Source of the DNA: Methanomassiliicoccales archaeon UBA280 | GTDB taxonomy: Archaea; Thermoplasmatota; Thermoplasmata; SG8-5 | Direction: 5' to 3' | Length of the DNA stretch: 64,000 bases | NCBI GenBank assembly: GCA_002499085.1 | Contig: DAKD01000032.1 | Span: forward strand, 1,315 to 65,314 | Made by a program: the position numbers and the translations under genes | Shown: positions 7,337-55,924 of the stretch, piece by piece | How positions within the stretch are numbered: the stretch's first letter is position 1 | How the letters are laid out: every line of letters starts with the position of its first letter | The notes under the pieces: model-generated | The model's input: only the letters and a program-made list of their open reading frames with translations | Database searches by the model: none | What the model was told of the DNA's origin: nothing

Positions 7337-7399
7337 ACCGCGCCACTGGGTGCCCTTCCTGGCGTAGGACTCGTTCCAGGCCAAGGGATACCGTTTCAT
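7337..7399 (-). pseudogene. Duplicated, diverged 5' end of the methyltransferase gene 6622-7269
   Basis: The minus-strand translation MKRYPLAWNESYARKGTQWRG matches codons ~8-28 of the intact gene (RKTYPLAWDTSYARKGTQWRGG). Most nucleotide differences are synonymous. The frame then runs into a repeat hairpin and stops at the real ATG. Confidence 0.7.
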
Positions 7400-7757
7400 G
7401 TCCAACTTTTCCGGGGAACCGCCCATGCACCCAATAAGCTGCTCATACGATATATCAGTTCCTCCGGGAACAACCGACCTTCAACATCTCATCGAACTCA
7501 TGAGAAACGAAAAAAGATAGAGAGAGTCGTTCCCATGCCAGAGCCTTCAAATTCGTACCCCGGCCTCACGGCCGAGGCTTTTTGTGTTGAGCTGCCCTCA
7601 TGAACGCTTTGCGAAGGGGCACTAGCTCACAAAATGATGTGAAACCCTGGCCTTACAGCCAGGGCATGCCGCTCAAAGTCGACGAACATGGCGCCAGGTA
7701 AGGCGGGGCAGGGTTGCCCCTTCACATTATATCTGAATCAGAAGTTTGGATACTGGA

Positions 7758-7964
7758 TTAATCCAACCAAGCCCCGTCTTCCTTGTATTCCTGGTACAGG
7801 CGCACGCCAGTGAGGCAGAGCAGGAGGACGAACAGTATCAGCAGGAGTACAGGCCCTGCGGACCAGTCGCCCCTGAGAACAAGCAGTACTATTGAAACAG
7901 TCCAGAGGGCTGCGGCGGACACGCTGGCGATGCGCCCCTTCGGGTTCAGGAGTATGACTGTCAT
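7758..7964 (-). CDS. Small membrane protein (68 aa, two hydrophobic helices)
   Basis: ATGA start/stop overlap with the upstream methyltransferase (7961-7964). Hydrophobic segments AAALWTVSIVLLVL and GPVLLLILFVLLLCL. Confidence 0.6.
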   Translation of the reverse strand: MTVILLNPKGRIASVSAAALWTVSIVLLVLRGDWSAGPVLLLILFVLLLCLTGVRLYQEYKEDGAWLD

Positions 7965-8698
7965 GGGGCCTCCTTCTCCAGCACCATCGCATATATCCCG
8001 TCCTTGCCGTTGAAGTATTTCCTCACCTTCCAGCCCGTACCGGAAAGGATGGCCTCCAGCTCCTGCTTGGACACCATCAGGTAATCGAACCAGGGCGTGC
8101 AGTACCTCTGGTAGCGGACGCGTATCCTGACCTGGCCCGACATCCTGCCCCTAGCGCGGTTCCTTGCCTGGTACTCCAGATGGTAGTCCCTGTCAGTCTG
8201 GTAGACATCGATGGTCTCGGCGATTATGTAGGCGTCCGGCGATGTCATCCCGTGGAAACGGCGCAGCAGCGTCTTGGCCCTCCTGGGGTTGGCGAACAGC
8301 CCGAAGTTGTTGCCCAGCATCAGAATGGTGTCGAAAGTGCCCAGGCCCGGTTTAATCTCGAGAATGTCCATGAGCATTGTCTTCTTCAGGCCCTGCTCAC
8401 GGCAGCATTTCAGGGCCATGGGCGAGTTGTCGATGCCCAGGATGTCCAGGCCTTTCGACTGGAGGTACAGCGAGTGCCTGCCCCCGCCGCAGCCTATGTC
8501 GAGGACACGGCCTTTCGCATGGCGGACAGCCCTCTGCAGGTGCACTGGCCAGTCCCCGAATTTTGCGAGATATGACTTGGGGCCCTCGGACACGTCGATG
8601 TAGCCGTCGTCCCTCTCGACCACTTCCTCCACGTCGATTCCGTGGAAATAGTCGTACATGCCGTACCCGAACGCGTCCTGGTGATCCTTCAGGGGCAT
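7961..8698 (-). CDS. Class I SAM-dependent methyltransferase
   Basis: Motif I VLDIGCGGGRHSLYL, with downstream ILGIDNS and ILMLGNNFG. Confidence 0.85.
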   Translation of the reverse strand: MPLKDHQDAFGYGMYDYFHGIDVEEVVERDDGYIDVSEGPKSYLAKFGDWPVHLQRAVRHAKGRVLDIGCGGGRHSLYLQSKGLDILGIDNSPMALKCCREQGLKKTMLMDILEIKPGLGTFDTILMLGNNFGLFANPRRAKTLLRRFHGMTSPDAYIIAETIDVYQTDRDYHLEYQARNRARGRMSGQVRIRVRYQRYCTPWFDYLMVSKQELEAILSGTGWKVRKYFNGKDGIYAMVLEKEAP

Positions 8699-8779
8699 CT
8701 TACACCGGGAGTGAATTCCCTTTGCATTATTTAAACACGACCCTGAGGCTTCGGACCCTGGCTTCCGAGGGAGTGTCTC

Positions 8780-11700
8780 TCAACCGGTCCCGGTTTCTTT
8801 GCGGCATCTCGACGCCCAAAAAGACTTGCCAAGGGCCTCGAAGCATTCGGCGGCCTTGAGGAAACTAGCTGCAGCCTTCGTGTCCTCTCCCATGGCTTTC
8901 CTCAGCATGCCAATCTCGAAATATACCAGGCCGGTTTGATCTCTGTCCGAGGCGGAGAGGACCAAATTTAAGGCCCTATCCAGCTCGCTTGCGGCACTGT
9001 CCCATTCGCCCTTCGCCCTGTGAATGGCGCCGAGGATTCTGCGCCCTGCCGCTTCCCCGCTGGTCGAGTTCAACTCAGAGGAGATTTCTATAGACTCCCT
9101 GGCGCATGACAGGGCTTCGGCTAGGTTGCCCAGCCCCAGATACGTTTCGGCCATTCCAATATTGAAAAACGCAAGCCCGTGCCTGCTTCCCAAATCTTTT
9201 TCGATGTCGAGGCCCCGCTTGTAGCGCTCAAGGGCTTCGAGCCATTCATGCCTGAGCCTGTGTGCCTCGCCCAGATCCCTGAGGGATTCGGACACCCCCG
9301 AAAGCTGGCCCAATTTCTCACGTATGGCCAGGCTGCGGCTGTGAAACTCGAGGGCCTTATCCAGTTCCCCGAGGTCCACATGTATATTTCCCATGTTGTG
9401 CAAGGACAGGGCTATTGCTTGCTGGTTCCCCAGCGCTTCGTGCATCCTGAGGCCGTTCATTGTGTGTTCCAACGCGCTGTCAAGGTTGCCGAGTCTGTGA
9501 TATATATCGCCGATATTGGTCAGGGATGTAGCTATGCCTGATTTATCCCCTATTGACTCGAGTATGGCAAGGCCCTGTTTGTGGAACTCGAGCGCTTTCA
9601 CGATATCGCATTTGGCAGTGTAGACATTGGCTATATTGCTCAGCGATGTAGCTATACCCTGCTTGTCACCGAGCTTTCTCCTGATCGCAAGACTGCGCTC
9701 GTAGCATTGTATGGACTCATCCAGCTCACATTTGTCCGAATACACGACACCGATATTATTTAGCGATGCTGAGATGCCTAGCTTATCCCCAATCTTTTCC
9801 CTGATCGCCAGACTCTCTTTATAATTCTGGAGGGCTTTGTCCAGCTCCCCTCTGCTATGATGCACTATCCCTATGATGTTGTGGGAATTTGCAACTGCCA
9901 ATTGGTCATTGGCCAGTTTCATCATTTTAAGGCTTTGCTCGGCGAACTGGAGTGCCGAGTTGAAATCGCCTCTGGCGATATATATCGGGCTCAAAGCCCG
10001 GAGTGCCTCACCCAAGTCGGCCTGGGAGTCCAGTTCCTTGAAAAGGTTTATCGCATCGTGGAATAATGGCATGGCCTTATCATAGTTCCCCTTCTTCCAT
10101 TGGACCGAGCCCTCGGCGAGCATTATGCGCCCCATCTCAAGGCACTTGACGCCGCCAAGGGAGTCCCTGGCAATCGCCAACGTCTGAAGGGCTTCTTCGA
10201 ATTCACCCCGCTTATCCAGAACAGTCCCTGTTTTTCGAAGGGACCTGGCCCGGGTTTCGGCTTCTGCCGAGGACTCCATCTCCCTCGAATAATATCGAAT
10301 GGCATTCTCGTAATCGCCTTCTATAGTATAGATGTCGGCAATTTTTTCAAATATTACAGGTTGTTCGTCCGGCCGTAGAAAGTCCAATGCATTCTCGTAC
10401 GATTGTATCGCGTCCTGGTTGACGAAAGCCTGTGCAGCCTTATCCCCGGCGAGAACAAGATATTGCCCTGCACGCTGGTCCCGGGCGCGTGAATAATGAT
10501 GGGCGATCTCTTCGATACGGTCCATCTCCCCGGCTTCCTGCAAGCCGACAAGTATATCGCCGACTTGCCTATGGTATTCGCTCCTCAACTCATCAGAAAT
10601 CTCCTGGTACAGCACCTCGCGGACCTTTGCATGGTCGAACCTATATTTGGATTTCATGGCATGTATCAGCCTATGGGTTCGCTCGATCTCACCCAGATGC
10701 TTCAGCAAAGGAATTTTCTTGACCTCGGAGATTCTTTCCAGCAGGTCGGCGGAGAACTCTTCGCCGATTACTGAGGCTAATCCGAGGAGGTCCCTCTGGT
10801 CGCCCGTGATCCTGTCCAGCCGCCGCTGCACGACGTCAACAATCTTAGTCGGCAGCGCCAAGCTGCCTGGGTCCTTTGCGACAATCCATCTGCCGGACCC
10901 GTCGCGCACGATCGCCCCCTCATCCGCCAGAACCTTCAGCACCTCGATGATGAAGAAGGGTGTGCCTCCCGTCTGCTTATGTATCCCATGAAGGAAATTC
11001 TCGTCGAACCCGTTCGGGCCCAAGGTGAAGGTGATGAGATTTCCAGTCTCATTCTCATTGAACCTCTCAAGTTCAATTCTGTGGAATAGCCCTTCCCTAC
11101 CCATGTTCTGCATTGCAGCTTCCAGGGGATTCGGTTTTCCGTCCCGGGCTCGTACTAAGTCCTCGGGGCGATAGGCCCCAAGAATTAATACCCTGTTTTC
11201 CCTCGTATTGCGGGCAATGTAATGCAACAGCCGCAGGCTTGTGGGGTCACACCATTGGAGATCATCCACAAAAATGATCAGAGGCCATTCTGATGAAAAC
11301 CTTTGCAGACCGATGAGGACGTTGTCGAACAGGTTCTCCTGCTTCAGGCGGGGTTTGTCCAGAATATTCGAACCATTGTACTTGCCTGAATCGATGAACC
11401 AGGCCAGCTTCGGGATTACGAACTCAGATTCGGAGGTATCACCGCGCCAGCCGTCCAGCTTTCCGTCCAATTTTATGAGCAGCTGTTTCATGTCATCGAT
11501 GAGGAATTCATTCTCCGTCCCCTCGAGCACCAGACTCAACGAGAGGGTGCCGCGCTTGCTGAGCATTATCTTGTACTGCCCGTAACCGATGGAGTTCAGG
11601 CTACCTTCCCGGGAGTGTGTCATTTTTGAGAGTGAGTCCCTCATGAAAGTGCCAACTGCGGACAGCATTGAGGCGAAAATCTCAGAGTCGAGGTCTGTAT

Positions 11701-43169: not shown

Positions 43170-43886
43170 ATGCACGTCACGGTGCAGTTGAATAGAGTAG
43201 GGGGGAAAGACGCGTCCTACGACCACAACTTCCATCTCGGAAGCGCGGTCTACACATTATTGAAAGAAAACGGGGACGGCGCAGCGGAAGCACTCCATGA
43301 GTCACATTATCGTTCAGCTTATGTTTTATCGGAAATTCACAGGGTCGGCGGAAAGCCAGGCGAGGCCTGGTTCCGGGTAGGGACAGAAAATGATGCGGTC
43401 CTCAAGATAATATCTAGGGCACTGCCTTCCAGCCAGAAACTCCATGTAGGCGGAGCTGAGTTCGTGGTCACAGGCCAAAATTTGGATGACCCGGTCGTCC
43501 GCCCAGGGGAGTTCATCACCCTCAGCCCCATCCTCCTGCGGGACAGGGAAACGGGCAAGAGCATCGTGCATGACACCCCGGGTTACAAAGAAACCCTGGA
43601 AGCGGCAATCAACGCCCAGATAAAGAATTACATGAAAGTCGATGGAACCGTAAAGCTCATACACTTCGAGCCCCAGGCTGTCAGGAAGCGCACAATCAAG
43701 GAGAAAACGGTTCTGGCGCAGAAGGGCCGGTTGCTGCTGGACGGGGAGGAGGAGCAGTTGCGGTTCTTGGTGAACCATGGCGTGGGGTTGAGCCCGGCGT
43801 TGGGGTTCGGGATGGTGGTGGGAGCCAATGATAGGTGTACTTACAACGATGAGGAAGATATATATCATTATCACAGGGGTGAATGA
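43170..43886 (+). CDS. cas6: CRISPR endoribonuclease Cas6 (stand-alone)
   Basis: Dual-RRM-sized protein with a C-terminal glycine-rich loop GVGLSPALGFGMVV typical of Cas6. GC-rich like the host. Confidence 0.8.
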   Translation: MHVTVQLNRVGGKDASYDHNFHLGSAVYTLLKENGDGAAEALHESHYRSAYVLSEIHRVGGKPGEAWFRVGTENDAVLKIISRALPSSQKLHVGGAEFVVTGQNLDDPVVRPGEFITLSPILLRDRETGKSIVHDTPGYKETLEAAINAQIKNYMKVDGTVKLIHFEPQAVRKRTIKEKTVLAQKGRLLLDGEEEQLRFLVNHGVGLSPALGFGMVVGANDRCTYNDEEDIYHYHRGE

Positions 43887-46696
43887 TGTCCCAAGTGAGT
43901 TCACCTAACAATACACAAAAATGGATTGCTGGTGCATTAGGATTGAAAAATAATGATTCCCCGTTTTCATGGCAAATGAGGCTCTTTGAAAACTTCAAGA
44001 AAGGTGAAATTCCTCGCTTACTCGATATCCCCACAGGACTTGGCAAAACTGGTGTTATGGCCATATGGCTCGTAGCACGGGCTATCGGCGCACCAATGCC
44101 TCGTCGACTTGTCTACATCGTGGATAGGCGAGCCGTTGTAGATCAGGCAACGGAAGTGGCGCTTAACATTCGGACCTTCGTGGAAAATACGCCAGAATTG
44201 AAAAAAAATCTCGATTTGGAGGCACATGCACTTCCAATCTCCACCCTCCGCGGTAAATTTGTAGATAACAAGGAATGGCTAGAAAATCCAGTTTCACCCG
44301 CAATTATCGTTGGGACCATTGACATGATTGGTTCTCGACTTTTATTTGAGGGATATAATGTTTCACGCAGGATGCGACCGTTTCATGCAGCCCTCCTCGG
44401 AACAGATTCACTCATTGTCCTTGACGAGGCTCATTTAGTACCGCCTTTCGAGAAACTTCTTGAAACTATTGATGATGGCAAGAATGTTTTTGGCCCATAC
44501 AAAGAGGAACAGAAAATAATTATACCCACATTCAAACTTATTGCATTGTCTGCCACAGGCCAGTCAGATTCGGGAACTATTTTCAATATCGATAATGCAG
44601 ATTTGAAAGTTGGCACTGTCACTTCTCAACGTCTTAATGCTAAAAAACAAATTGTTATTGAGGACATCGAAGATGGAAAGGAATTATCAGAGGCCCTAGC
44701 AAAGAATGCCTGGAAACTCTCTGAAAATGGCAAACTCGCTGTTAAAATTGTTGTATTCTGCGATAAACGCGAAGATGCTGAGAAAGTTAAGAAAGCCATT
44801 GAGAAGCACTCGATGGGCGTTAATAAGAAAGAAAAACCACCCATTGAACTCCTTGTTGGTAGTCGTCGTGTATACGAAAGGGAGAAAGTTGCACAATGGC
44901 TAAAAATTCATGGTTTCGCAGATAAAGATATAAATGTGGAGGAGCCCACATTTTTAGTTGCGACTTCTGCTGGTGAGGTTGGAGTTGATCTTGATGCGGA
45001 CCATATGGTTTCCGACCTTGTCGCTTGGGAGCGCATGGTACAACGCCTTGGACGGGTGAATCGATTTGGCAATGGTGCTGCTCGCGTGAATATAATAGTG
45101 TCATACGACAAAAAGGCACCAGACGCATATAAGAAAACACCAGAAATTCGTAATGAAAATGAACAAGAATTAGCAGAAAAATACGAGAGGTTAATAGCGA
45201 CACGTGAACTACTCGCCAAATTGCCTAAAATTAATGGAGGTTATGATGGCAGTCCAATAGCATTATGCAACCTAAAGAATATGGCAAATAACAATGATGA
45301 ATTAAAATCCCTTTTCGATAAAGCTATTACGCCATCGCCCCTAAGGCCAGCCCTTACACGGCCTTTAGTGGATGCTTGGTCTATGACATCCCTCAAGGAA
45401 CATACAGGGCGACCAGAGATTGGTCCCTGGTTGCGCGGATGGGTAGATGATAAACCGCGAGTGTCGGTTATCTGGCGAAAGTACCTACCTGTTCGTTGGT
45501 CAGGGGACAGACGGGTTAGTGTTTCAGCAAGCGAGACAGAAGCTTTTTTTGAAGCCGCACCACCTCATATGAGTGAAATGCTCGAAACAGAATCATATCG
45601 AGTCGTTGAATGGCTCAAGAAACGTGCAAAAATTATTGAACCACCCCAGTTTGTCGGTTCTTCTGCAGACACCGACAATGAAGATCAAGATATTCATTAT
45701 CTCATTCAAGAAGATGATATAGTGGCTAATGTTTTGTCACCAGCTCATGAAATTAAAAAACTCCTCACATTGAGCAATCTTCTGCAAGAAAAAGAGGAAC
45801 TGGATGATTTATCATCGGGTTGCATTATTGTCCTTGACGCACGTATTGGAGGGCTGAGTGATGGACTTCTCGATAAAGATAAAAAATCAACTCCGCGAAC
45901 AGCCGACGATGGTCAACTGTGGACGCAAGTAGGTTCAGAAAATGCGCAGTCCACACCAGTTGTTCATTTTCGTATCAGAAAAATGAATGAAGAATTGGAC
46001 GAAGATGTTAATGAAGAGTGGCACGAAAGCCTTAGATTTCCCACGAAAGTCATGGAAGATGGGGAGTCATCTGAGTGGCTTATTATCGAAAAATGGCATG
46101 GCTCCTCCGAAACAGAAGAAAGTCGCTCAACTGGATATCTCCAACTTCTGGACAATCACAAAGAAGAGGTGGAGAAAAAGGTGCAATTCATCGCGGACAA
46201 ACTGAGCTTTCCTGAGGAATATGCAAACATGCTTCGCATCACGGCGAGACTACATGATGAAGGTAAAAGGGTCAATTGTTGGCAGCAGGCATTTAACGCA
46301 CCCAAAGATGGAAGAACCTATGCCAAGACGAAAGGACCCATAGATCAGGACATTCTAAACAAATACCGACATGAACTTGGTTCTCTATTATTTGCAGAGA
46401 AAGACCCTGAACTTTTGGCTCTTCCAGAAGATAAGCGCGAGTTAGCACTTCATATGATTACAGCCCATCATGGATTCGCCCGTCCAGTCATAACCACACA
46501 TGGCTGTGAGGAAGCACCGCCATCGTTGTTGAATGAAAAATCAAAGGAGATTGCCTTACGCTTTGCACGATTACAGAAACAATGGGGACCGTGGGGTCTC
46601 GCCTGGTGGGAAACAGTACTCAGGGCAGCAGATCAACAGGCATCACGTGTTGATGAAGAAACTATTAACACGAATGGAGGAAAACGCGATGGCTGA
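43883..46696 (+). CDS. cas3: Cas3 helicase with C-terminal HD nuclease (type I-G/I-U architecture)
   Basis: Walker A PTGLGKTGV and DEAH box VLDEAHL. The HD domain is at the C-terminus (RLHDEGKR...HELGS...ITAHHG). ATGA overlap with cas6. AT-rich. Confidence 0.9.
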   Translation: MMSQVSSPNNTQKWIAGALGLKNNDSPFSWQMRLFENFKKGEIPRLLDIPTGLGKTGVMAIWLVARAIGAPMPRRLVYIVDRRAVVDQATEVALNIRTFVENTPELKKNLDLEAHALPISTLRGKFVDNKEWLENPVSPAIIVGTIDMIGSRLLFEGYNVSRRMRPFHAALLGTDSLIVLDEAHLVPPFEKLLETIDDGKNVFGPYKEEQKIIIPTFKLIALSATGQSDSGTIFNIDNADLKVGTVTSQRLNAKKQIVIEDIEDGKELSEALAKNAWKLSENGKLAVKIVVFCDKREDAEKVKKAIEKHSMGVNKKEKPPIELLVGSRRVYEREKVAQWLKIHGFADKDINVEEPTFLVATSAGEVGVDLDADHMVSDLVAWERMVQRLGRVNRFGNGAARVNIIVSYDKKAPDAYKKTPEIRNENEQELAEKYERLIATRELLAKLPKINGGYDGSPIALCNLKNMANNNDELKSLFDKAITPSPLRPALTRPLVDAWSMTSLKEHTGRPEIGPWLRGWVDDKPRVSVIWRKYLPVRWSGDRRVSVSASETEAFFEAAPPHMSEMLETESYRVVEWLKKRAKIIEPPQFVGSSADTDNEDQDIHYLIQEDDIVANVLSPAHEIKKLLTLSNLLQEKEELDDLSSGCIIVLDARIGGLSDGLLDKDKKSTPRTADDGQLWTQVGSENAQSTPVVHFRIRKMNEELDEDVNEEWHESLRFPTKVMEDGESSEWLIIEKWHGSSETEESRSTGYLQLLDNHKEEVEKKVQFIADKLSFPEEYANMLRITARLHDEGKRVNCWQQAFNAPKDGRTYAKTKGPIDQDILNKYRHELGSLLFAEKDPELLALPEDKRELALHMITAHHGFARPVITTHGCEEAPPSLLNEKSKEIALRFARLQKQWGPWGLAWWETVLRAADQQASRVDEETINTNGGKRDG

Positions 46697-47558
46697 ATAT
46701 TCAATTCCTGTTGATATTTTCAACCCTGGCCAAGTATTCGCGTCGCTGGGGTTTCTGGAAGCGGCAGATGTACTTCTTGGTGATGTAGAAGGTGGCTTTG
46801 ATTGGACTGATTATACAAATGTACGCTTCATACTTCGTACGGGGAATGATAGAAATCCATTCAAAGAAGTACTTGAATTTATTGCGAATGCAAATATGGT
46901 TTGTTTAGCTCCACCAAATTATAAAACATCTAAATCCAGGTCAATTCGAATATCTGAATGTTTTCCATCAAAACATATTAAGGATAAGGAATTTCCATGC
47001 AGATTCGAGAAAAATGGTTTTGCAATCAACATCAGTCATTGGGCTGACAGTTCAAGTCGAGATAATTTCAAGCAATTTGCTGGAAACCAAAATCCAAGTG
47101 AAACCATTCTACCTCAATTGCAGAGCGGTATTAAGGAATTGTTGAAATGTGATACTTATTTTATCGAGAATCCGTTCGAGAGTATGCTGCCAATTGGGCG
47201 CATAAGCTGGAAACTAGATGCACGTTCGGCGTGGACCGCTAGAGATGTGGGGTACTCTCTTGAAGACCAGAAGTATGCTTTAATGTCATCTCCTGTAGTG
47301 GAACTTTATGCAGCTATCGGTTTCGAAAACGCTAGGCCTTTCGTCGATTTGAATAACAAATTAAAGGTTAGTTATGGTGTTTGGAGCACTGTTGTTGCTC
47401 CACTATTATGTCGTCCTGTTATAGGCGGCATCAATACGGGTATACCAACACGTATCTTCGAGTTTATTCGAAATAAATCTGGAAAAAACGGAGAATATAA
47501 ACAAACGACATATGCAAACGAAGTAACCATAGAAAATAATGGAGTTGATGAAAAATGA
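46689..47558 (+). CDS. csb3: Csb3/Cas8u1-like protein in the large-subunit slot of type I-G (289 aa)
   Basis: Position between cas3 and csb1. The N-terminal IPVDIFNPGQVFASLGFLEAADVL matches my recollection of the Csb3 (Dpsyc subtype) signature. 8-nt overlap with cas3. Confidence 0.6.
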   Translation: MAEYSIPVDIFNPGQVFASLGFLEAADVLLGDVEGGFDWTDYTNVRFILRTGNDRNPFKEVLEFIANANMVCLAPPNYKTSKSRSIRISECFPSKHIKDKEFPCRFEKNGFAINISHWADSSSRDNFKQFAGNQNPSETILPQLQSGIKELLKCDTYFIENPFESMLPIGRISWKLDARSAWTARDVGYSLEDQKYALMSSPVVELYAAIGFENARPFVDLNNKLKVSYGVWSTVVAPLLCRPVIGGINTGIPTRIFEFIRNKSGKNGEYKQTTYANEVTIENNGVDEK

Positions 47559-48658
47559 ATAAAGAAAAAGATAGCGAAGAACTTGTGGTGGACGAGGCGA
47601 TGTTGAATGATTGGGCAACGAACCCAAAGGGGCCCGTCGCCCTTGTTTTAAAGGAGAAATTAATGCCAGTCGAGGGCGAAAGGGGAATTATTTTCCCTCC
47701 AACGTATGCAGATATCGGTTACAACATTGACGAGTTGTCAGATGGGAAAAAGATCGCAACAATAGATAGTGTAGGGTCTCAGGCCAACCGAATGGAACCT
47801 TTGTTCAAAGAGGAATCACTTAAAGACCTTGTGCCACAGATTGATATAAAAATTAACGAAGAAAAAATAATATCCATTTTTGATATTGGGCATCGACTGG
47901 GGGATGCACTTATACGTTGTAGTGATTTTTCAGCCGAAGCTAAAGAGGCATTCGAGAATTGGCGGGAAGGGGACGCTTTCAAACTAGCCAAACTTGCGCC
48001 TACTTCGATAGTGTTCGGTGCTTGGGATTCTCGGGATACAGCAGCCAAATTACCTCGTATAGTTCAATCAGTAATCCGTGCATGGGATGTTACAGAACTA
48101 AAACGTTCTGCAACATATGTTCCACCAGTGGATTACTCAAAACTCGACATATTTTCTGAAGAAGATAAGGCAAAAGCCGAAGGAGATACGAAAAATCCTT
48201 TAGCAAAGCGTGGCTTCGTGCATGTCCCTGCAGGAAAAGTACCTGGTGGTGTGATAGCTAATGGCCCTATTTACCGCGATGTCACGGTGAATCTGGTTGC
48301 TCTGCGTCAGATTAAATCCAAAGAAAAGAGAGATGAGCTTCGTAAGTATATTCTTGGCTTGTCGTTAACTGTTGCAATCCAGCCACTCGATGGATTCCTG
48401 CGGCAGGGTTGCCTTCTTACGCTAGATCCAACGGTGAAAGAGTCTTGGATTGTAGTTAATCGTGATGGCACCCGTCAATCCGTAACAATCAAAGAACAAA
48501 CAGTACTCGATTACGCAAAGAAATCATCTAATAATTTTGGTGTTGGTAAGTCAAAAAAAGCAGAGTTTGACAAAAAGAAGGCTAAGGAAGATTCACAGAA
48601 AGATAAGAAGAAAAAGAAGGGAAAAGATAAGGAAAATGAGGAAAAAAAAGACCAATAA
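47555..48658 (+). CDS. csb1: Csb1 / Cas7 of type I-G (GSU0053 family RAMP) with Lys-rich C-terminal tail
   Basis: IFPPTYA...IDSVGSQANRMEPLF and FGAWDSRDT motifs are typical of Csb1. Tail KKKAKEDSQKDKKKKKGKDKENEEKKDQ. ATGA overlap with csb3. Confidence 0.8.
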   Translation: MNKEKDSEELVVDEAMLNDWATNPKGPVALVLKEKLMPVEGERGIIFPPTYADIGYNIDELSDGKKIATIDSVGSQANRMEPLFKEESLKDLVPQIDIKINEEKIISIFDIGHRLGDALIRCSDFSAEAKEAFENWREGDAFKLAKLAPTSIVFGAWDSRDTAAKLPRIVQSVIRAWDVTELKRSATYVPPVDYSKLDIFSEEDKAKAEGDTKNPLAKRGFVHVPAGKVPGGVIANGPIYRDVTVNLVALRQIKSKEKRDELRKYILGLSLTVAIQPLDGFLRQGCLLTLDPTVKESWIVVNRDGTRQSVTIKEQTVLDYAKKSSNNFGVGKSKKAEFDKKKAKEDSQKDKKKKKGKDKENEEKKDQ

Positions 48659-48661
48659 TCG

Positions 48662-50179
48662 GTGTTCACAATGTTGAGAAACCTTCTTATCAAAGTCAAT
48701 TTTCACGATGGACGATTCCATGGATCGAATGACTGGCCACCGTCCCCAGCTAGGCTGTTTCAAGCATTGGTTGCTGGTGAGGGTGTTGGTGGACCGATTT
48801 CGGATATGAAAAAAGCGACTTATCAATGGTTAGAATCCCTCGTTGCTCCAATTATATTGGCACCAATAGCTAAGAAAGGAAGCAAAGTGACTTTTTTCGT
48901 CCCGAGAAACGACTTTGATTTTGTCAAAGGAGATTTCAATAAAGTGAATGAAATCCGATACCCAAAGACAATCACACCCTGGTTGTTCGATGCTGCGCAT
49001 CCAACTATCTATATCTGGGAATTCCAAGATGAAGATGTGGAACAAGCAAAAAATGTATGCCAATTCGCCGAGAGTTTATATCAACTCGGCCACGGGGTTG
49101 ATATGGCATGGGCCACCGGGGAAATCATTGAACCTGAAAAGGTGGATGAAATATTGAGAAACTACCCAGGACAAGTTTATCGCCCAACAGCCAGAACGGG
49201 TTCCACCGAAAGATGGGCGTGCCCTTGTCTCGGTACATTCGAAAGCCTTGAGAAACGTTACAATACTGTACGATTCCGAAATGAGAATGGTGGGCAAGTG
49301 TTACGCCCCCCCTCAGCTAAATTTGCGATGATTGCCTACAACGCCCCTCCCAATCGTTGTTTGTTTGAGCTTCGAAAAGTCACCGATAACAGGCAGTTTA
49401 ACTCTATACCACTTTATAAATCTGCGAACCTTGTCATTAAAATACGCGACGCTGCAATCCAGAAACTGCTTAGTGTATTTCCCCAAGAAGAAAATCATGT
49501 GAAAAATGCATTGAACAGTAAAGTACATAATAGCAATCGTGGAATGAAAGATAATTCTCAAGTGAATATCATCCCACTTCCCTCTATTGGCCACCGTTAC
49601 GTTGATTGTGATATCAGGCGCATTCTCGTCGAGGTTCCTCTCAATTGTCAGTTAAATGCCGAAGATGCATTTTGGGCATTTTCAGGGCTCACCCTTGCAG
49701 CAACTGATATGAAAGGAGAACTGGAAACGATTCTCACGCGAATCAGGGTGGGTGGCAAACAGAATATGCTTGCCCATTACGGTGTAATTGATAAATCAAA
49801 ATTCAAGATATGGCACACAGTGACCCCCGCTGCATTGCCAGATGAAGCAAAAAGGCGGCGCATTGACCCCACACGAGGTCATGAGGAATCAAAGTCTGGG
49901 TCGGAACGTGCTGGTGAAGAGATGCAAGCAGCTGTCGCAATTTTCCATGAATTGCGTAATGTCCGTATGCTACCACAAATCGAATCAATCCATGTGCAAC
50001 GCGAACCGTTTCAGAGCAGGGGAATGCGTGCGGAGGCATTCAGTATCGGTACGGAATTTGCGAAAGAACAACTTTGGCACGTTGAAATTGCGTTTAAAGA
50101 ACCTGTTGATGGCCCACTTCTGATTGGCAATGGCCGTTTCCTCGGCCTTGGAGTTATGGCACCTGTAAGGAATGCATGA
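48662..50179 (+). CDS. csb2: Csb2 / Cas5(-Cas6 fusion) of type I-G (GSU0054 family)
   Basis: N-terminal signature FHDGRFHGSNDWPPSPARLFQALVAG. The ~500-aa size fits the Csb2 family. GTG at 48662 or ATG at 48671. Confidence 0.85.
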   Translation: MFTMLRNLLIKVNFHDGRFHGSNDWPPSPARLFQALVAGEGVGGPISDMKKATYQWLESLVAPIILAPIAKKGSKVTFFVPRNDFDFVKGDFNKVNEIRYPKTITPWLFDAAHPTIYIWEFQDEDVEQAKNVCQFAESLYQLGHGVDMAWATGEIIEPEKVDEILRNYPGQVYRPTARTGSTERWACPCLGTFESLEKRYNTVRFRNENGGQVLRPPSAKFAMIAYNAPPNRCLFELRKVTDNRQFNSIPLYKSANLVIKIRDAAIQKLLSVFPQEENHVKNALNSKVHNSNRGMKDNSQVNIIPLPSIGHRYVDCDIRRILVEVPLNCQLNAEDAFWAFSGLTLAATDMKGELETILTRIRVGGKQNMLAHYGVIDKSKFKIWHTVTPAALPDEAKRRRIDPTRGHEESKSGSERAGEEMQAAVAIFHELRNVRMLPQIESIHVQREPFQSRGMRAEAFSIGTEFAKEQLWHVEIAFKEPVDGPLLIGNGRFLGLGVMAPVRNA

Positions 50180-50700
50180 TAATGAACAAAGAATCCACGA
50201 CCATAACACATGATGCTATAACCCCCTCCGGCAAAGCCGCCTTCTACCTCCATTCCTGCCCGGTCCTGACCTGGCTATACCTCCACGGACAACTCGTCGT
50301 CAGCCCGAGCCATGTATACATCCAGAGCGGAAAAGAACTCGACGCCCAGCGCTTCTCCAACAAGCGCTCCATCGACCTCTCCCCCTATGGGAAAGCGGAC
50401 TGGGTCACCGGCACCCAAACAAGTCCAGTAATCCACGAGGGCTCGCGCGGCAAGCGGCACAATGAGCCGAAGCGCGCCCAGCTCCGCCATTACCTGTGGG
50501 CCGCCAAGCAACTCTACAACATCGACGCGGTCGGCGAACTTCACCTGAAACAGGGCAACGTGGAGAGAGTCGAACCTGACCACGAATCGGTGGAAAAAGA
50601 CCATGCCAGGCTGCTGGAGATAATGAACGGCCCGATGCCTGAGCCGAAGAAAATCCCGATATGCAAGGGTTGCACGAACAGGGACTGGTGCTGGGGTTGA
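50176..50700 (+). CDS. cas4: Cas4 (RecB-like nuclease with Fe-S cysteines), stand-alone
   Basis: N-terminal Cys (HSCPVLTW), QxxxY (AQLRHY) and C-terminal CKGCTNRDWC. ATGA overlap with csb2. GC-rich again. Confidence 0.8.
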   Translation: MIMNKESTTITHDAITPSGKAAFYLHSCPVLTWLYLHGQLVVSPSHVYIQSGKELDAQRFSNKRSIDLSPYGKADWVTGTQTSPVIHEGSRGKRHNEPKRAQLRHYLWAAKQLYNIDAVGELHLKQGNVERVEPDHESVEKDHARLLEIMNGPMPEPKKIPICKGCTNRDWCWG

Positions 50701-50791
50701 TGCTTAAGGGGGCTTCGCATGTCAAGTGACAAAAAACACAATTAGTGTCTTATAGCGAGCGAAGCCTTTATATAGAATACTTTTCATACAG

Positions 50792-52018
50792 GTGATTATG
50801 ACGGAAGAGATACTGAGACAATTCAATCCCTGGTGGGAGAGGGAATACGAATCGCCCGGCATTCCGAGGCCGGATTACATCAGAAAGATTCGGGACGCCC
50901 TCGCCCGGCAGAATGTGGCGATTCTGTATGGCCTGCGCCGTGTCGGTAAGACCACCATAATGAGGCAGTTCGTCGCCCAAACGCTTGGAACCTTGCCGCC
51001 CGACAGGATATATTTCGCTTCCATGGACCACCCGGACCTCGGGAGAACGTCCATCATCGAAATCCTGAGGGAGTTCAGAAGGATCACCTCCGCCAGGACT
51101 GACGAGAAAGTGTTATTACTGTTGGATGAAGTTCAGCACAGGAAAGGGTTTGAGAAGGAGATCAAGGCCATCGTCGATATGGACGAGAAGGTCCAGATTA
51201 TTGCGTCAGGGTCTTCAAGCCTTGCCCTGGCTCACGCAAGCCCTTATCTGACAGGCAGATATAGCCGTGTTCCGGCCCGGCCTTTGAGTTTCCTAGAATT
51301 TATCTCCTTCAGGGCACAGAAGTACTTGGAACATGAGCCGCAACTCATGGAAGCGCTGATGGATGAGTACCTAGTCACCGGGGGAATGCCGAAATACGTC
51401 ATGACTGGCGACCCGTTGATTATCACAGAAATAATCGAAGATGTCATTTATAAGGACATATACGGCCAGTATGAAATACAGGATCCACAACTGCTCAAGG
51501 AACTCTACTACCTACTCATGGTGCGGGTGGGAAAACCGCTTAGTTTCCGCAAGATGGGAAGGCTAATAGATATGAGTGTTGACACGGCCAGAAGGTATGT
51601 AGGGTATTTCCAAGAGGCATTCCTAATAGATGTGGTGGAGAGGGAAGGGTCGCCCAACGTTCGCAAGGCTTCGCCCAGGAAATGCTATGCTCCAGATACT
51701 GGAATTCGTGCAGTCATTGCGGGTGAAAGCAACATTGGCTCCCTCGCTGAAAATGCGGCTTATCTCAAGCTCAAAGAGGAGGGGCCCGTGAGATACCTGT
51801 CTGAGAAGAACGGGGAGATAGATTTCCTAATCGGCGGAAAGGCCGTAGAGGTCAAATACTGGGACCGGGTGGAAAAGGAACAAATTCCGTATCTTGTCAA
51901 GTTCAAAGGAAGGCAGGTGAAGGATAAAATTGTCGTGTCCAGGAGGGTCAGTCCGGACATCGGGAGAATCAAGAACGTACCTTTATGGCGCTTCCTGGTC
52001 GACGAGAGGGAACGATGA
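50792..52018 (+). CDS. AAA+ ATPase of the COG1373 / AAA_14 + DUF4143 family (C-terminal PD-(D/E)xK-like motif), embedded in the adaptation module
   Basis: FNPWWE start, Walker A GLRRVGKTT, Walker B LLLLDEVQ, a wHTH-like middle, and C-terminal GEIDFLI...AVEVKY. Its stop overlaps the cas1 start (ATGA at 52015). Confidence 0.85.
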   Translation: MIMTEEILRQFNPWWEREYESPGIPRPDYIRKIRDALARQNVAILYGLRRVGKTTIMRQFVAQTLGTLPPDRIYFASMDHPDLGRTSIIEILREFRRITSARTDEKVLLLLDEVQHRKGFEKEIKAIVDMDEKVQIIASGSSSLALAHASPYLTGRYSRVPARPLSFLEFISFRAQKYLEHEPQLMEALMDEYLVTGGMPKYVMTGDPLIITEIIEDVIYKDIYGQYEIQDPQLLKELYYLLMVRVGKPLSFRKMGRLIDMSVDTARRYVGYFQEAFLIDVVEREGSPNVRKASPRKCYAPDTGIRAVIAGESNIGSLAENAAYLKLKEEGPVRYLSEKNGEIDFLIGGKAVEVKYWDRVEKEQIPYLVKFKGRQVKDKIVVSRRVSPDIGRIKNVPLWRFLVDERER

Positions 52019-53010
52019 AGGACTACTACATATTCCAGAACTGCAAGCTGGACGCGGACGAACACGTTCTCCACATCGAAGGCGATAAAAGCCGCAGATT
52101 GCCGGTGGAGGAGATCGCCGGGCTGCATCTTCTCTCCGGGTACTCAATCACCAGCGGCGTCATCGACCTGGCCGCGAAGCACAACATACCGATACACGCC
52201 TATAATTTTCATGGAATCTATCATGGAACATTCTTCCCGCCGCCTGTGGAGCCGACCGGCTCCATTCTCATTGGCCAGGTGAAGAGCAGGTTGGACGAGG
52301 GCAGGAGATTGGAACTGGCAAGGTGCATCCTGGAAGCATCCAACCGTTCGACAAATGCCCTGTTGAAACCTTTCGAACTGGAATTGTCCTGCGCAATCGA
52401 GGGAGACAATGTTGAGATGTTCATGCTCTCGGAAGCGCGGGTCCGAAAGGAATACTATGCCCTGCTGGACACCATACTTCCGGCATTCTGGAGCATTGTC
52501 AAGAGGGAGCGCCAGCCCCCGAGAAGGCCTGCCGATGCGGTGCTGGGGTTCGCCAACGGTATTCTGTATGCGAAAATGGCAGGCTGGATTCATCGGGCGG
52601 GACTTGATCCCAGGATAAGCTACATCCACGGGGAAAGCCGCGCTAGAAACCCTCTCGCGCTAGACCTAGCCGAGGTTATGAAGGCGCCTCTTTCGGAAGC
52701 AATATTATTGGAAATCGCTGCCAGCGGCTCCGAGAGGAGCCTGATAACGGAAGTGGGGGAGGGTGTTTATCTGAACGAAAAGGGCAGAAAAATAATCATC
52801 CAGTTCATAGAAGAAGCTCTTAAAAAATCAGTGCGCCCTCCCGGAAAGGACCGAGAGGATATCGTCGAAGCGTGGGGAAGTTCGGTCCCGAGAAAGCTCC
52901 ATAGATGCCTCGTGGAGGATAATAATCCTAACTTACCGGTGATGCCATGTACGTTGTCGTCGTCTACGATGCGGACCCTCATGAACGAGAGATCATCCGT
53001 GCCGTACTGA
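52015..53010 (+). CDS. cas1: Cas1 integrase
   Basis: Typical N-terminus (YIFQNCKLDADEHVLHIEG...IPIHAYNFHG) and catalytic region (SEARVRKEYY...NGILYAKMA...GLDPRISYIHG...RNPLALDLAE). Confidence 0.9.
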   Translation: MKDYYIFQNCKLDADEHVLHIEGDKSRRLPVEEIAGLHLLSGYSITSGVIDLAAKHNIPIHAYNFHGIYHGTFFPPPVEPTGSILIGQVKSRLDEGRRLELARCILEASNRSTNALLKPFELELSCAIEGDNVEMFMLSEARVRKEYYALLDTILPAFWSIVKRERQPPRRPADAVLGFANGILYAKMAGWIHRAGLDPRISYIHGESRARNPLALDLAEVMKAPLSEAILLEIAASGSERSLITEVGEGVYLNEKGRKIIIQFIEEALKKSVRPPGKDREDIVEAWGSSVPRKLHRCLVEDNNPNLPVMPCTLSSSTMRTLMNERSSVPY

Positions 53011-53198
53011 TGCCGAAGTTGCACTGGATACAGAACAGCGTCTTTGCAGGTGAGATAAATCAAGTGGCTGCGAAGGACCTTCAGAAATCATTGACAGATT
53101 TTGTGCGAGATTCTAAGGTCACTTTCTGGCTATTCGATAAAAAGCCGGAGACTTTCCAGATTGGCTCACAGGATGATGGCGAATCGATTTTCTTGTGA
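52947..53198 (+). CDS. cas2: Cas2
   Basis: MYVVVVYDAD...IQNSVFAGE... ferredoxin-like Cas2 pattern, 83 aa. Confidence 0.9.
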   Translation: MYVVVVYDADPHEREIIRAVLMPKLHWIQNSVFAGEINQVAAKDLQKSLTDFVRDSKVTFWLFDKKPETFQIGSQDDGESIFL

Positions 53199-53302
53199 GC
53201 CAAAAATCATATAAACAGGAAGTAATATATATGACCTGAAGAAAAGGCCAGACCTGAAACATAACCAATCCGAAAGCTTTTTAAATGATGAGTCAAGGTC
53301 TT
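53199..53302 (+). promoter_or_regulatory. CRISPR leader (AT-rich, 104 bp between cas2 and the first repeat)
   Basis: AT-rich sequence with ATATATATGA and TTTTTAAATGATGA boxes directly upstream of repeat 1. Confidence 0.6.
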
Positions 53303-55924
53303 GTCGCTCCCGCCCGCCTACGAGGCATTGAAACACGCTCCCGGACCTGGAGGGCAGGCTGAGCGCAAGTCGCTCCCGCCCGCCTACGAGGCATTGAAAC
53401 CGAAGTACTTCTGAAGGATCGCGGTTTTTTCCTCGTCGCTCCCGCCCGCCTACGAGGCATTGAAACGTAGAGTGACGGGACATCGCACCCCAGCACCCCC
53501 GTCGCTCCCGCCCGCCTACGAGGCATTGAAACCTGGGCGAGCAGGGCCTGGAGCTTCAGCATGATCGTCGCTCCCGCCCGCCTACGAGGCATTGAAACTT
53601 CTTGTTGAAGGTTATCGAGGTCTTGCATTCCTGTCGCTCCCGCCCGCCTACGAGGCATTGAAACGATAGAGCTAACCTACAGCGATGCCATGGGTAATGT
53701 CGCTCCCGCCCGCCTACGAGGCATTGAAACTGTCAATCCGAAGATAGAATCACTCTAGCCCCGAGTCGCTCCCGCCCGCCTACGAGGCATTGAAACTGCA
53801 ACAGAAGCTTGTCCTCCTGGAGCTCGGCCCGTCGCTCCCGCCCGCCTACGAGGCATTGAAACAAAATATCGGGCACACCCAGCGCCATACTGTACAGTCG
53901 CTCCCGCCCGCCTACGAGGCATTGAAACACGACGCAGTTCATGAAGTACGTCAACCCGACATGTCGCTCCCGCCCGCCTACGAGGCATTGAAACACGACA
54001 ACAGGATCAGCTCCGCAATCAACCAGACAGGTCGCTCCCGCCCGCCTACGAGGCATTGAAACCACACTATACGCCAGCAGACTACTGCATGAAATCGGGT
54101 CGCTCCCGCCCGCCTACGAGGCATTGAAACGATGAAACCGCCATTGACTGTTGAGATTGTGGCATGTCGCTCCCGCCCGCCTACGAGGCATTGAAACAAT
54201 GTCTCTAGGTGCTTCAGCTGCCTCTGGGAGCCGAGTCGCTCCCGCCCGCCTACGAGGCATTGAAACAAGGTCAGCTGGAACCACACGAAGCTGGCGAAGC
54301 GTCGCTCCCGCCCGCCTACGAGGCATTGAAACTTGGAAAAGGACAATTTCATGGGCATTGCAATCCGTCGCTCCCGCCCGCCTACGAGGCATTGAAACCT
54401 GTTGGCTGAGGAATTCTGCCCGATAGTATTTTGTCGCTCCCGCCCGCCTACGAGGCATTGAAACCAGAAATGATTAGAAGTTCCCCCAATCAGTTATCGT
54501 CGCTCCCGCCCGCCTACGAGGCATTGAAACGAGCGCATGCCGGGGAACCTGAACATCTGTTTGAGTCGCTCCCGCCCGCCTACGAGGCATTGAAACAAGT
54601 GTAATGTCCAACCAGGCCCAGCCATAACGGGTCGCTCCCGCCCGCCTACGAGGCATTGAAACGTGGTCATGGGGATTGCCCCCTCTGAGGTTCGGGAGTC
54701 GCTCCCGCCCGCCTACGAGGCATTGAAACCAGGTTGTCCGCGTATGTGTCAATGGCGCTCTTGGTCGCTCCCGCCCGCCTACGAGGCATTGAAACTGCAG
54801 GACCTTGTTGTACGTCGACACGACGGCCAGTCGCTCCCGCCCGCCTACGAGGCATTGAAACGACAGATCCAGCGGGGATATGACCAATCCGACGGGTCGC
54901 TCCCGCCCGCCTACGAGGCATTGAAACGCCAAGTCATCCGCCGACATGCTGATCAGAACTAGTCGCTCCCGCCCGCCTACGAGGCATTGAAACGTATAAG
55001 GTGGCCACGAATCAGAAACTCATGGCTGCGTCGCTCCCGCCCGCCTACGAGGCATTGAAACACGGGCCTCTCCTGGCTGCACACCGAACCCATCAGTCGC
55101 TCCCGCCCGCCTACGAGGCATTGAAACATGCCCTTGGCTATTTCTCTGGCCGTTTGCCCCGGTCGCTCCCGCCCGCCTACGAGGCATTGAAACAAGGTCC
55201 TGTTAGTCTATCATAACGACAGACTAAGGTCGCTCCCGCCCGCCTACGAGGCATTGAAACGACTATTGCACCAGCAACGCGACCGGCCACAACTGTCGCT
55301 CCCGCCCGCCTACGAGGCATTGAAACAATCGACTCTGGGCGGGTGTTCGCTGGAATACTCGGTCGCTCCCGCCCGCCTACGAGGCATTGAAACTTAAATG
55401 CGCAAGGTGTTGTAAGGTATCCAGATATGGTCGCTCCCGCCCGCCTACGAGGCATTGAAACGATTTTGAAACGATAAGTTGTAAAGTAAGTACATGTCGC
55501 TCCCGCCCGCCTACGAGGCATTGAAACAACCAATTACCTCAAGATACCGATGTACCTCAGCGTCGCTCCCGCCCGCCTACGAGGCATTGAAACAAAGCTG
55601 GCGGGATAATACAGACGCCCGTACCAGGTCGCTCCCGCCCGCCTACGAGGCATTGAAACAATAAAAATAAACTGGTGTTCCCGACCCCATAGGGTCGCTC
55701 CCGCCCGCCTACGAGGCATTGAAACGAGCATGCGATAGAGTACACCAGCACAGACGGGTTGTCGCTCCCGCCCGCCTACGAGGCATTGAAACAGTATCCA
55801 GCCCACCCCATCCATGCAATTCACATGTCGCTCCCGCCCGCCTACGAGGCATTGAAACTGAAATAAGGGAGCGCGGCGCCCGCGATTACTCCGTCGCTCC
55901 CGCCCGCCTACGAGGCATTGAAAC
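53303..55924 (+). CRISPR. CRISPR array: 40 copies of the 32-nt repeat GTCGCTCCCGCCCGCCTACGAGGCATTGAAAC, with 39 spacers of 34-37 nt
   Basis: All repeats were located by hand (first at 53303-53334, last at 55893-55924). No variant repeat was noticed. The GTCGC...ATTGAAAC repeat type is shared with I-C/I-G-like families. Orientation is inferred from the ATTGAAAC 3' end and the leader next to cas2. Confidence 0.98.

Follow-up and report, generated by a model that had tools for sequence, protein, structure and literature searches.

A type I-G clustered regularly interspaced short palindromic repeats (CRISPR)–Cas locus of the Methanomassiliicoccales archaeon UBA280 carries a gene for a predicted ATPase–nuclease of the AAA_14/DUF4143 family exactly between cas4 and cas1. 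We analysed this gene, hereafter the ATPase gene, in a window of 64,000 nucleotides from contig DAKD01000032.1. On balance, we lean towards the view that it is an autonomous cassette that was inserted in the cas4–cas1 overlap and has been co-inherited with the adaptation module, as a lodger and not as a part of the spacer acquisition machinery. An autonomous role appears likeliest because the gene is absent from sister loci and remains under selection when the cas genes decay. A sequence-only reading of the same DNA had picked out the open reading frame (ORF) and had proposed that its product is an accessory factor of spacer acquisition. That interpretation is partly supported: the adjacency to cas genes is non-random, the gene is under selection and its promoter region is conserved, but a role in adaptation is not supported.

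Comparison with loci encoding related Cas1 proteins showed that the ATPase gene is not present in all orthologous modules. Four Cas1 homologs were chosen on identity and sequence extent only, and one of the four carries the ATPase gene. It is present in a type I-B locus whose Cas1 is 80% identical to that of the window (L123) and absent from a type I-G locus that is collinear with the window (L120–L122, 91%), from a type I-D locus (L124–L126, 86%) and from a second type I-B locus (L127, 74%). The operon of the collinear type I-G locus reads cas6-cas3g-cas8g2-cas7g-csb2-cas4-cas1-cas2; here cas4 and cas1 are distinct genes that share an ATGA overlap, and this overlap is kept in all of the ATPase-free loci. 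The empty sites (L120, L124 and L127) read TGGC(A/T)ATGA^A(A/G)GA(C/T)TAT, where the caret marks the boundary, and the occupied sites read ...GGCAATGA^TG(C/T)TTAAAAG ... GAGGAGACATGA^AAGACTAT. A 1.3-kb insert lies exactly inside the ATGA overlap, and most occupied loci have ATGA at both ends of it. The insert keeps the cas4 stop codon and the cas1 start codon, and puts a Shine–Dalgarno (SD)-like purine run ahead of cas1. The overlap between the ATPase stop codon and the cas1 start codon, which the sequence-only reading had pointed out, is present in the window (Table 1); it is also ATGA in L012 and L123, and it is GTGA in L119. Precise insertion together with an empty-site polymorphism is a pattern looked for in mobile elements and homing genes, and it was found here.

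The gene had been thought to occupy the place where type I-G loci normally have a Cas4–Cas1 fusion junction. We did not find this to be the case: cas4 and cas1 of the window are separate genes, as they are at the orthologous empty type I-G site, and the fusion typical of type I-G is missing. Cas1 of the window scored 190 bits on the type I-B model cas1_HMARI versus 80 bits on cas4g_cas1g, which has a cut-off of 560. Because Cas1 scores as I-B-like, we take the site to be the boundary between two genes, not the place of an earlier fusion.

A protein search placed the window protein in a tight clade of sequences that are 69–80% identical to it (P0002–P0011), with the next relatives at 55% identity or less, and the clade sits on a long stem in a neighbour-joining tree. 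Ten clade members have a known context (P0005, P0008, P0011 and P0219 were not included), and in all ten of them cas4 or cas1 sequence, either intact or as a remnant, lies directly beside the ATPase gene. The order cas4-ATPase-cas1-cas2 with a stop/start overlap was found in at least four distinct loci, namely the window, L012, L119 and L123, whose ATPases are 70–78% identical. L012, with Cas1 94% and ATPase 78% identical to those of the window, has cas3 directly 5' of these genes and is hence I-B/I-D-like, and L123 contains a full type I-B operon (cas6-cas8b-cas7-cas5-cas3-cas4-ATPase-cas1). The finding that the occupied loci carry different effectors, I-G and I-B, supports the conclusion that the ATPase gene travels with the adaptation module.

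The wider family behaves differently from the clade. We surveyed 79 loci of GTDB species representatives with family members of 54% identity or less, covering 845 kb in all, using a hidden Markov model built from 98 Cas1 sequences and phmmer searches with type I-B, I-D and I-G Cas proteins. None of the 79 loci had Cas1, Cas2, Cas4 or a CRISPR array within about 8 kb of the family member. The 136 immediate neighbours at these loci represent 148 Pfam families. Another AAA_14/DUF4143 gene is the most frequent neighbour (5 cases), and Cas1, Cas2 and Cas4 are absent from the top neighbour families listed. The expectation that homologs would be enriched next to adaptation genes therefore held for the clade and failed for the wider family (10 of 10 versus 0 of 79, Fisher p = 2e-13), and the clade count goes back to descent from one ancestor, not to several separate recruitments, so that it is not independent evidence of association. 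A scan of JGI metagenome contigs for this single protein returned one close relative only, which was already known. Separately, an ATPase whose identity to the stub-flanked L005 copy described below is 90% or more (P0219) and a Cas1 that is 91% identical to that of the window (P0122) are both recorded with a longest contig of 5946 bp from an NCBI Thermoplasmata metagenome-assembled genome (MAG); the two may belong to a further cas-linked locus that is intact and has an almost identical ATPase.

Chance adjacency had been offered as the null hypothesis by the sequence-only reading. A family that is extremely abundant in archaea, averaging more than one copy per genome, and that has heterogeneous neighbours in 79 other genomes could come to lie next to cas1 by accident, or could do so as a decaying passenger. 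For this clade the null is rejected by the contact of all ten members with cas4 or cas1, and a chance or passenger origin is very improbable given that the same arrangement is kept in several divergent loci, that every copy of the ORF is intact with a ratio of nonsynonymous to synonymous divergence (dN/dS, or ω) of 0.06–0.14, and that compensatory changes accompany the conservation of the control region.

We obtained Nei–Gojobori estimates for the window and L012. The values were dS 0.78 and ω 0.19 for cas4, dS 1.10 and ω 0.11 for the ATPase gene, dS 0.69 and ω 0.05 for cas1, and dS 0.99 and ω 0.06 for cas2. The four genes are of similar age in this pair, and the ATPase gene is under clear purifying selection. 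Between the window and L119 synonymous sites are saturated, with dN of 0.17 for the ATPase and 0.18 for Cas1, and nine further ATPase pairs gave ω of 0.06–0.14. We also considered a swap of the ATPase allele between the window and L012, as Cas1 is 94% and the ATPase 78% identical in this pair; this was dropped, as dS is comparable in the four genes (0.69–1.1). The identity gap between Cas1 and the ATPase exists mostly because constraint differs (ω 0.05 versus 0.11).

Selection on the ATPase gene does not end where the cas genes end. Solitary-looking copies of the gene (L001–L004, L005, L117 and L035) are each flanked by cas4 and cas1 remnants that are detectable by tblastn and blastn, consisting of the cas4 3' end from codon 135–159 on and of the cas1 5' end, from codons 1–4 up to codons 1–32. 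These copies have only a unit of about 1.5 kb in common and lie in unrelated gene contexts. In L001–L004 the ATPase gene is between a radical-SAM gene (cysS/radical SAM context) and tRNA-Leu/thyX, in L005 it adjoins a deoxyhypusine synthase gene, and in L117 it adjoins an MFS transporter gene. The ORF is intact in every copy, including those of L001, L005, L035 and L117 beside cas4/cas1 stubs of only about 10–45 codons. Since L005 and L035, which are both stub-flanked and share a right breakpoint at 52111, gave ω of 0.107 at dS 0.65, the ATPase gene is evidently maintained without an intact cas4 or cas1 adjoining it. In L013 the adaptation module is decaying (1892–2220) downstream of an intact ATPase ORF: cas1 is internally deleted, with amino acids 1–85 joined near amino acids 286–327, and cas2 is a stub of 15 codons. 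Beyond them lie another paralog and the beginning of a cas6 gene.

These observations bear on the proposal that the ATPase–nuclease is a dedicated adaptation accessory that would act with Cas4, Cas1 and Cas2 in generating or selecting prespacers or in gating acquisition. We consider this unlikely. The cas4-ATPase-cas1-cas2 order with its ATGA or GTGA overlap is found in four loci with type I-G and I-B effectors, the gene is under purifying selection with a dN near that of cas1, and clade members touch cas4 or cas1 as no surveyed member outside the clade does. The protein also has a PD-(D/E)xK domain, as do Cas4 and Csa1, and an AAA_14/DUF4143 gene near a CRISPR array of T. thermophilus is induced by plasmid DNA (PMC4406477), all of which speaks for such a function. 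However, close modules (Cas1 91%, 86% and 74% identical) do without the ATPase and keep an identical cas4–cas1 junction with its overlap intact, the clade count goes back to a single ancestry, and copies persist at dN/dS of about 0.1 beside dead cas4/cas1 stubs. Unrelated paralogs also occupy the same slot, and no such link was seen in the wider family or in the text of a survey of CRISPR-linked genes, which does not mention the AAA_14/DUF4143 family. Literature on DUF4143, COG1373 or AAA_14 in connection with CRISPR did not describe a cas4-ATPase-cas1 arrangement, although its coverage is incomplete and this is weak evidence.

Several points weigh against reading the gene as an autonomous lodger. 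The genomes of the stub-flanked copies may hold Cas1 elsewhere, as independence is judged from local context only. The linkage to cas1 has been kept over saturated synonymous divergence, in two subtypes and with the overlap, which is also a partnership-like pattern. The clade sample is small. On the Cas1 tree, presence (+) and absence (-) of the ATPase gene are patchy, ((((window+, L012+), L120-), L124-), L123+), L119+, L127-, and three gains are as parsimonious as one gain with two losses, so that gain and loss are not polarised. Finally, PDC-S01, the family model to which the protein belongs (see below), is a defence candidate by 'guilt by embedding', with experimental validation pending (PMC12988326).

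The insertion pattern also raises the question of whether the unit is a selfish mobile cassette, either homing-type or recombination-driven, which re-enters the cas4–cas1 junction, carries pieces of cas4 and cas1 with it and is kept by propagation or addiction. The precise insertion in ATGA, the presence/absence polymorphism among orthologous loci, the nuclease domain in the protein and the isolated ~1.5-kb unit in unrelated contexts are consistent with this. So are two kinds of junction. The first is a Campbell-type signature in L115, where an AAA_14/DUF4143 paralog is bracketed by two direct copies, each of 50 bp, of the cas4 3' end (1094–1143 and 2563–2612) that are identical at 42 of 50 positions. 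The second is a joint of a cas1 5' fragment with a cas4 3' fragment (cas1N::cas4C), which reverses the chromosomal order, as expected of a circle joint or a tandem duplication. This joint lies upstream of the ATPase gene in L001–L004, which are four independent assemblies, and on both sides of it in L035, where the two copies are 91% identical. On the other hand, the unit contains no integrase or transposase and no terminal inverted repeats, a scan of viral contigs gave no close relatives of the ATPase, and a plasmid tblastn search gave only matches of 27% identity or less; the protein also belongs to no known homing-endonuclease family. The comparable dS of the ATPase gene and its flanks between the window and L012 suggests co-divergence and not recent transfer. 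The stub-flanked copies might be what is left of CRISPR loci that have decayed, and a 7-bp microhomology could be due to chance. We therefore regard a selfish element as quite improbable, and continue to favour an autonomous cassette that is inherited together with the module.

The 7-bp microhomology is the heptamer CGGTGGA, which occurs exactly twice in 50100–52300, flanks the cassette as a direct repeat and is kept in empty loci too. It coincides with the L035 joint and with the right ends of L005 and L035, and the homology boundaries of these two loci are at 50610–50632 and 52111. The L001 joint has other breakpoints than the heptamer, and a chance 7-mer match is not unlikely; microhomology-mediated duplication or excision is a lead suggested by these positions. 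Coarse synteny was all that could be read from an all-against-all tblastx comparison of the loci, which was swamped by CRISPR repeats.

Four further features were seen at the junctions. In L115, cas4 is followed by the paralog (424 amino acids, 28% identical to the window protein), a cas4 3' fragment and the ATPase gene. Because this paralog is also inserted right after cas4, cassettes may have landed repeatedly at the cas4–cas1 boundary. The L035 locus (1–9000; GTDB MAG244, JBFMEL010000031.1) is a defence island with a CRISPR array that has the repeat of the window, AbiEi/AbiEii and MNT/HEPN. Its upstream neighbour is a different ATPase paralog of 416 amino acids, whose stop codon overlaps the ATG of the cas1 fragment, and downstream is an ATPase_2/DUF234 protein, so that three different AAA ATPase–nuclease-type genes stand in a row, parted by near-identical units of cas1N::cas4C, hairpin and TATA box. 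This arrangement resembles an array of cassettes. In L001 (9305–9391) and L002 (1674–1760), the stub-flanked ATPase gene is followed, 84 nt downstream, by a tRNA-Leu(TAA) gene in the opposite orientation, with only cas1 codons 1–4 in between; this may be an integration hotspot. In L005, the cas4 remnant is separated from the hairpin and promoter by an insertion of about 470 bp at 4553–5031, which is built of degenerate tandem repeats with a unit of about 92 bp; Tandem Repeats Finder (TRF) reported 4702–4879 with a period of 92 and 87% matches.

The insert contains its own control region. About 97 nt between the cas4 stop codon and the ATPase ATG are kept in all clade members, the stub-flanked ones included. 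RNAalifold predicted a bipartite, nested hairpin in this region that is conserved in 11 of 11 clade intergenic regions (Table 1). In these, 95.8% of cells were paired and 5 of 13 pairs had compensatory changes, a number reached by 4 of 500 shuffles. The covariation score was 0.309 versus 0.18, and none of the 500 shuffles scored as high. Shifting the register by one position or more reduced pairing to about 40%. The hairpin of the window folded alone was not significantly better than shuffles (z -1.3), and an Rfam search of the region gave no match. We also considered two palindromic protein-binding boxes in place of the hairpin; this was rejected, as the boxes are not individually palindromic in several loci and the cross-pairs are kept with compensatory changes. 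The hairpin is probably an operator, a terminator-like insulator against the upstream transcript, or both.

The A/T-rich box that had been claimed upstream of the gene is present, one base away from where it had been placed, and contains a TATA box. At the TATA box, CCTTTATA is invariant across all clade members, and the control region ends in an invariant GCGAAGCCTTTATA that is found in clade loci only and occurs once in the window. Among the starts of the cas locus, TATA-like boxes at -18 to -42 were found only for the ATPase gene and cas6, plus one inside the cas6 coding sequence 5' of cas3g; across the window, 5 of 51 called genes have such a box. The argument from TATA-to-start spacing draws on general features of archaeal promoters. 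Because the TATA box is only about 24 nt from the ATG at 50798, we infer that a leaderless transcript may begin the ATPase-cas1-cas2 unit.

The ORF had been described as 408 amino acids between cas4 and cas1, and it is present as such when read from a GTG at 50792. The ATG at 50798, giving 406 amino acids with the N-terminus MTEEILRQFNPWW, is the more likely start because all homologs start there and an identical database protein (P0001) has 406 amino acids. Pfam matches were AAA_14 (3.6e-27, 95 bits, cut-off 27, amino acids 40–170) and DUF4143 (6.2e-13, 49 bits, cut-off 28, amino acids 221–356). The PDC-S01 model of PADLOC (PDLC04787) matched amino acids 20–403 of 406 with 4.8e-65 and 218 bits, a full-length match that places the protein in the AAA_14/DUF4143 family (COG1373, PDC-S01). 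An NCBIfam scan gave no model matching the ATPase protein. The motifs GLRRVGKTT, LLLLDEVQ and EIDFLI...VEVKY that had been noted from the sequence were all found in the translation. Across 92 homologs of 36–100% identity, G45, G50, K51, D110, E111, E318, E340, D342, E351 and K353 are invariant, and the P-loop motifs are intact in the window protein (Walker A GxxxxGK[TS], Walker B hhhhDE).

An AlphaFold2 model of the protein (predicted local distance difference test score (pLDDT) 93, predicted template-modelling score (pTM) 0.90) showed an AAA+ core with a helical lid, a winged-helix region and, at the C-terminus, an alpha-beta-beta-beta-alpha-beta unit; the middle part had been described from the sequence as winged helix–turn–helix (wHTH)-like. 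The C-terminal elements (helix 313–325, strands 332–336, 339–345 and 348–352, helix 364–368 and strand 376–381) fit a PD-(D/E)xK core, and the model together with the 92-homolog alignment places the catalytic signature E318, D342, E351 and K353 on it. Foldseek against the PDB returned, in this order, SSO1545 (2FNA, 4e-10), PABY2304 (2QEN, 1e-9), Avs4, ORC/Cdc6, Apaf-1/CED-4, RuvB and a clamp loader, and the P-loop matches found in PDB sequences with a profile were all weak, the best again being SSO1545 and PABY2304. When the C-terminal domain was modelled by itself (pLDDT 83), no Foldseek match was significant (lowest E-value 0.35), and the top of this non-significant list is rich in restriction-type nucleases (MspJI, BglII, EcoO109I, Can2, Cap4 and Bax1). 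DUF4143/COG1373 has been listed as PD-(D/E)xK with unknown function (Steczkiewicz et al., PMC3424549), and Pfam assigns DUF4143 to this superfamily as well. An architecture of an AAA+ sensor or motor, a wHTH and a PD-(D/E)xK nuclease domain is well supported, and the protein is a predicted ATP-dependent nuclease.

Table 1. Features of the type I-G CRISPR–Cas locus and of the insert at its cas4–cas1 boundary, in window coordinates.
Feature	Position	Strand	Evidence or remark
Type I-G CRISPR–Cas locus	43170-55793	+	Pfam, NCBIfam, TRF
cas6	43170-43886	+	Pfam/NCBIfam; TATA-like TTTAAA 29 nt 5' of start
cas3g	43883-46696	+	TIGR02621, 596 bits
cas8g2 (GSU0052)	46533-47558	+	TIGR04106, 152 bits
cas7g/csb1 (GSU0053)	47555-48658	+	TIGR02570, 142 bits
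csb2 (GSU0054)	48662-50179	+	TIGR02165, 249 bits
Stand-alone cas4, 174 aa	50176-50700	+	Pfam Cas_Cas4 3.4e-19, PADLOC Cas4; stop is left edge of insert
Heptamer CGGTGGA, copy 1	50588-50594	+	cas4 codons ~138-140
1.3-kb insert (hairpin, TATA box, ATPase gene)	50701-52018	+	Comparison with empty cas4–cas1 sites
Bipartite inverted repeat/hairpin, outer stem GCTTCG/CGAAGC, inner stem GACA/TGTC	50708-50769	+	RNAalifold; 3' arm abuts TATA box
A/T-rich box TTTATATAGAATAC	50767-50780		Contains the TATA box
TATA box TTTATATA	50767-50774	+	~24 nt 5' of ATG 50798
ORF from GTG, 408 aa	50792-52018	+	
AAA_14 + wHTH + DUF4143 ATPase–nuclease gene, 406 aa	50798-52018	+	Pfam, PADLOC PDC-S01
Walker A GLRRVGKTT	50930-50956	+	
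Walker B LLLLDEVQ	51113-51136	+	
E-x-D...E-x-K motif (EIDFLI...VEVKY)	51815-51856	+	Protein holds EIDFLIGGKAVEVKY
ATGA, overlap of ATPase stop and cas1 start	52015-52018	+	Purine-rich SD-like GAGAGGGAA just 5', in ATPase 3' end
cas1, I-B-like	52015-53010	+	Pfam, NCBIfam
Heptamer CGGTGGA, copy 2	52103-52109	+	cas1 codons 30-32; marks right cassette boundary (52111) in L005, L035
cas2	52947-53198	+	Pfam, NCBIfam
CRISPR array, repeat GTCGCTCCCGCCCGCCTACGAGGCATTGAAAC, period ~66	~53369-55793	+	TRF

The surrounding locus is of type I-G by its signature genes cas3g, cas8g2, cas7g/csb1 and csb2, for which the NCBIfam bit scores, listed in that order, are each above cut-off. The repeat of its array is also present in L035 and L115. 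The GC content is 0.49–0.51 for the ATPase gene, 0.55–0.57 for cas4, about 0.53 for cas1-cas2 and 0.39–0.46 for the effector genes. The ATPase gene had been said to match cas4 and cas1 in GC content; it is closer to these than to the effectors, but its value is intermediate. Along the window, the AT-rich I-G effectors (43800–50100) stand out from the adaptation genes (50100–53200, GC 0.49–0.57) and from the flanking genome (about 0.55–0.60). In related MAGs, one cas4-cas1-cas2 module, with Cas1 74–94% identical, is joined to type I-G, I-B and I-D effectors. The same adaptation module on different effector modules, together with the GC contrast, indicates that the adaptation module has been shuffled between effector modules.

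These results can be put together in the following scenario. A self-contained 1.3-kb cassette, with its hairpin or operator, TATA box, leaderless ORF and SD-like 3' end, would have arrived and entered the ATGA overlap of cas4 and cas1, presumably once, in a Thermoplasmatota adaptation module. It would then have been co-inherited with cas4-cas1-cas2 as this module shuffled between I-B and I-G effectors. Sister loci lack it or have lost it, and it persists alone under selection once cas genes decay. The protein itself most likely acts autonomously, and would recognize and cleave DNA in an ATP-dependent way during defence or genetic conflict. As a consequence of the insertion, cas1-cas2 would be uncoupled from cas4, coupled translationally to the ATPase gene and probably transcribed from the regulated promoter of the cassette. 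If spacer acquisition is affected at all, this would come about indirectly, by co-expression or by way of DNA fragments made by the nuclease, and not as a dedicated Cas function.

A more speculative possibility, to which we give little weight, is a lineage-specific add-on to adaptation, in which a PDC-S01 member provides cas1-cas2 with a regulated promoter and its cleavage feeds or gates acquisition. In a related version, the ATGA overlap would be a dedicated landing site that exchanges different ATPase–nuclease cassettes through circular or tandem intermediates, of which the cas1N::cas4C joints would be the mark. If the add-on reading were true, an innate candidate defence family would be tied directly to adaptive immunity.

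PDC-S01 has been described as ranking fourth in frequency among defence candidates of prokaryotes, with 9986 copies in 7747 archaeal genomes; it is reported to be retained in Thermoplasmatota, and combines an ATPase with a PD-(D/E)xK domain (PMC12988326). A family that is reported to be among the commonest predicted defence genes of prokaryotes, and especially of archaea, is placed by this clade in a defined genetic context, with naturally occurring plus and minus alleles of one cas4-cas1-cas2 module in I-G and I-B backgrounds, as well as copies that have outlived their cas neighbours. Two questions become testable: whether a PDC-S01 member affects acquisition or the expression of cas1-cas2, and whether defence cassettes land preferentially in the cas4–cas1 overlap. 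Should both answers be no, the locus is still a clean example of defence genes lodging in CRISPR operons, and a warning that operonic coupling alone is insufficient to call a gene a cas gene.

Compared with known systems, the locus is a conserved new variant of the adaptation module with an embedded member of a known, uncharacterised family. The window protein resembles PDC-S01 in its full-length model match, its ATPase and PD-(D/E)xK domains, its organization as a single-gene unit and its occurrence in a defence island (L035). It differs in that the window clade is embedded in an adaptation operon of CRISPR, in the cas4–cas1 overlap, with coupling to cas1, whereas the 79 other surveyed members are not. 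The uncharacterised archaeal ATPases of PF01637 with DUF234 (SSO1545, 2FNA; PABY2304, 2QEN) are the best matches both in structure and in PDB sequence, have the layout of AAA+ core, lid, wHTH and C-terminal domain in common with it, and have a member that adjoins the cassette in L035; however, they are only 14–16% identical and belong to different Pfam families.

The nucleases of adaptation modules (Cas4, Csa1, DnaQ domains in some Cas2 proteins and Cas2–Cas3 fusions) are similarly encoded beside cas1-cas2, and the ATPase–nuclease is likewise co-translated with cas1. PD-(D/E)xK chemistry is common to Cas4, Csa1 and the DUF4143-type domain. Those nucleases are near-universal in their subtypes and have shown prespacer-processing roles; unlike them, the window ATPase is optional among orthologous modules, bears an AAA+ domain and persists where the cas genes have decayed. 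Free-standing homing endonuclease genes such as seg and mob of phage T4 are also nuclease genes with their own promoters that lie precisely between conserved genes, are present or absent among collinear loci and take fragments of flanking genes along. In contrast to these, the window protein is in no known homing family, is large and predicted to be ATP-dependent, and has apparently co-diverged with its flanks. Avs4 of the STAND/Avs systems is among the top fold matches of the NTPase module, and the logic of an NTPase sensor with a nuclease effector is similar; this resemblance is structural only, as the window protein is much smaller, lacks sensor repeats such as tetratricopeptide repeats (TPR) and carries its DUF4143 nuclease at the C-terminus.

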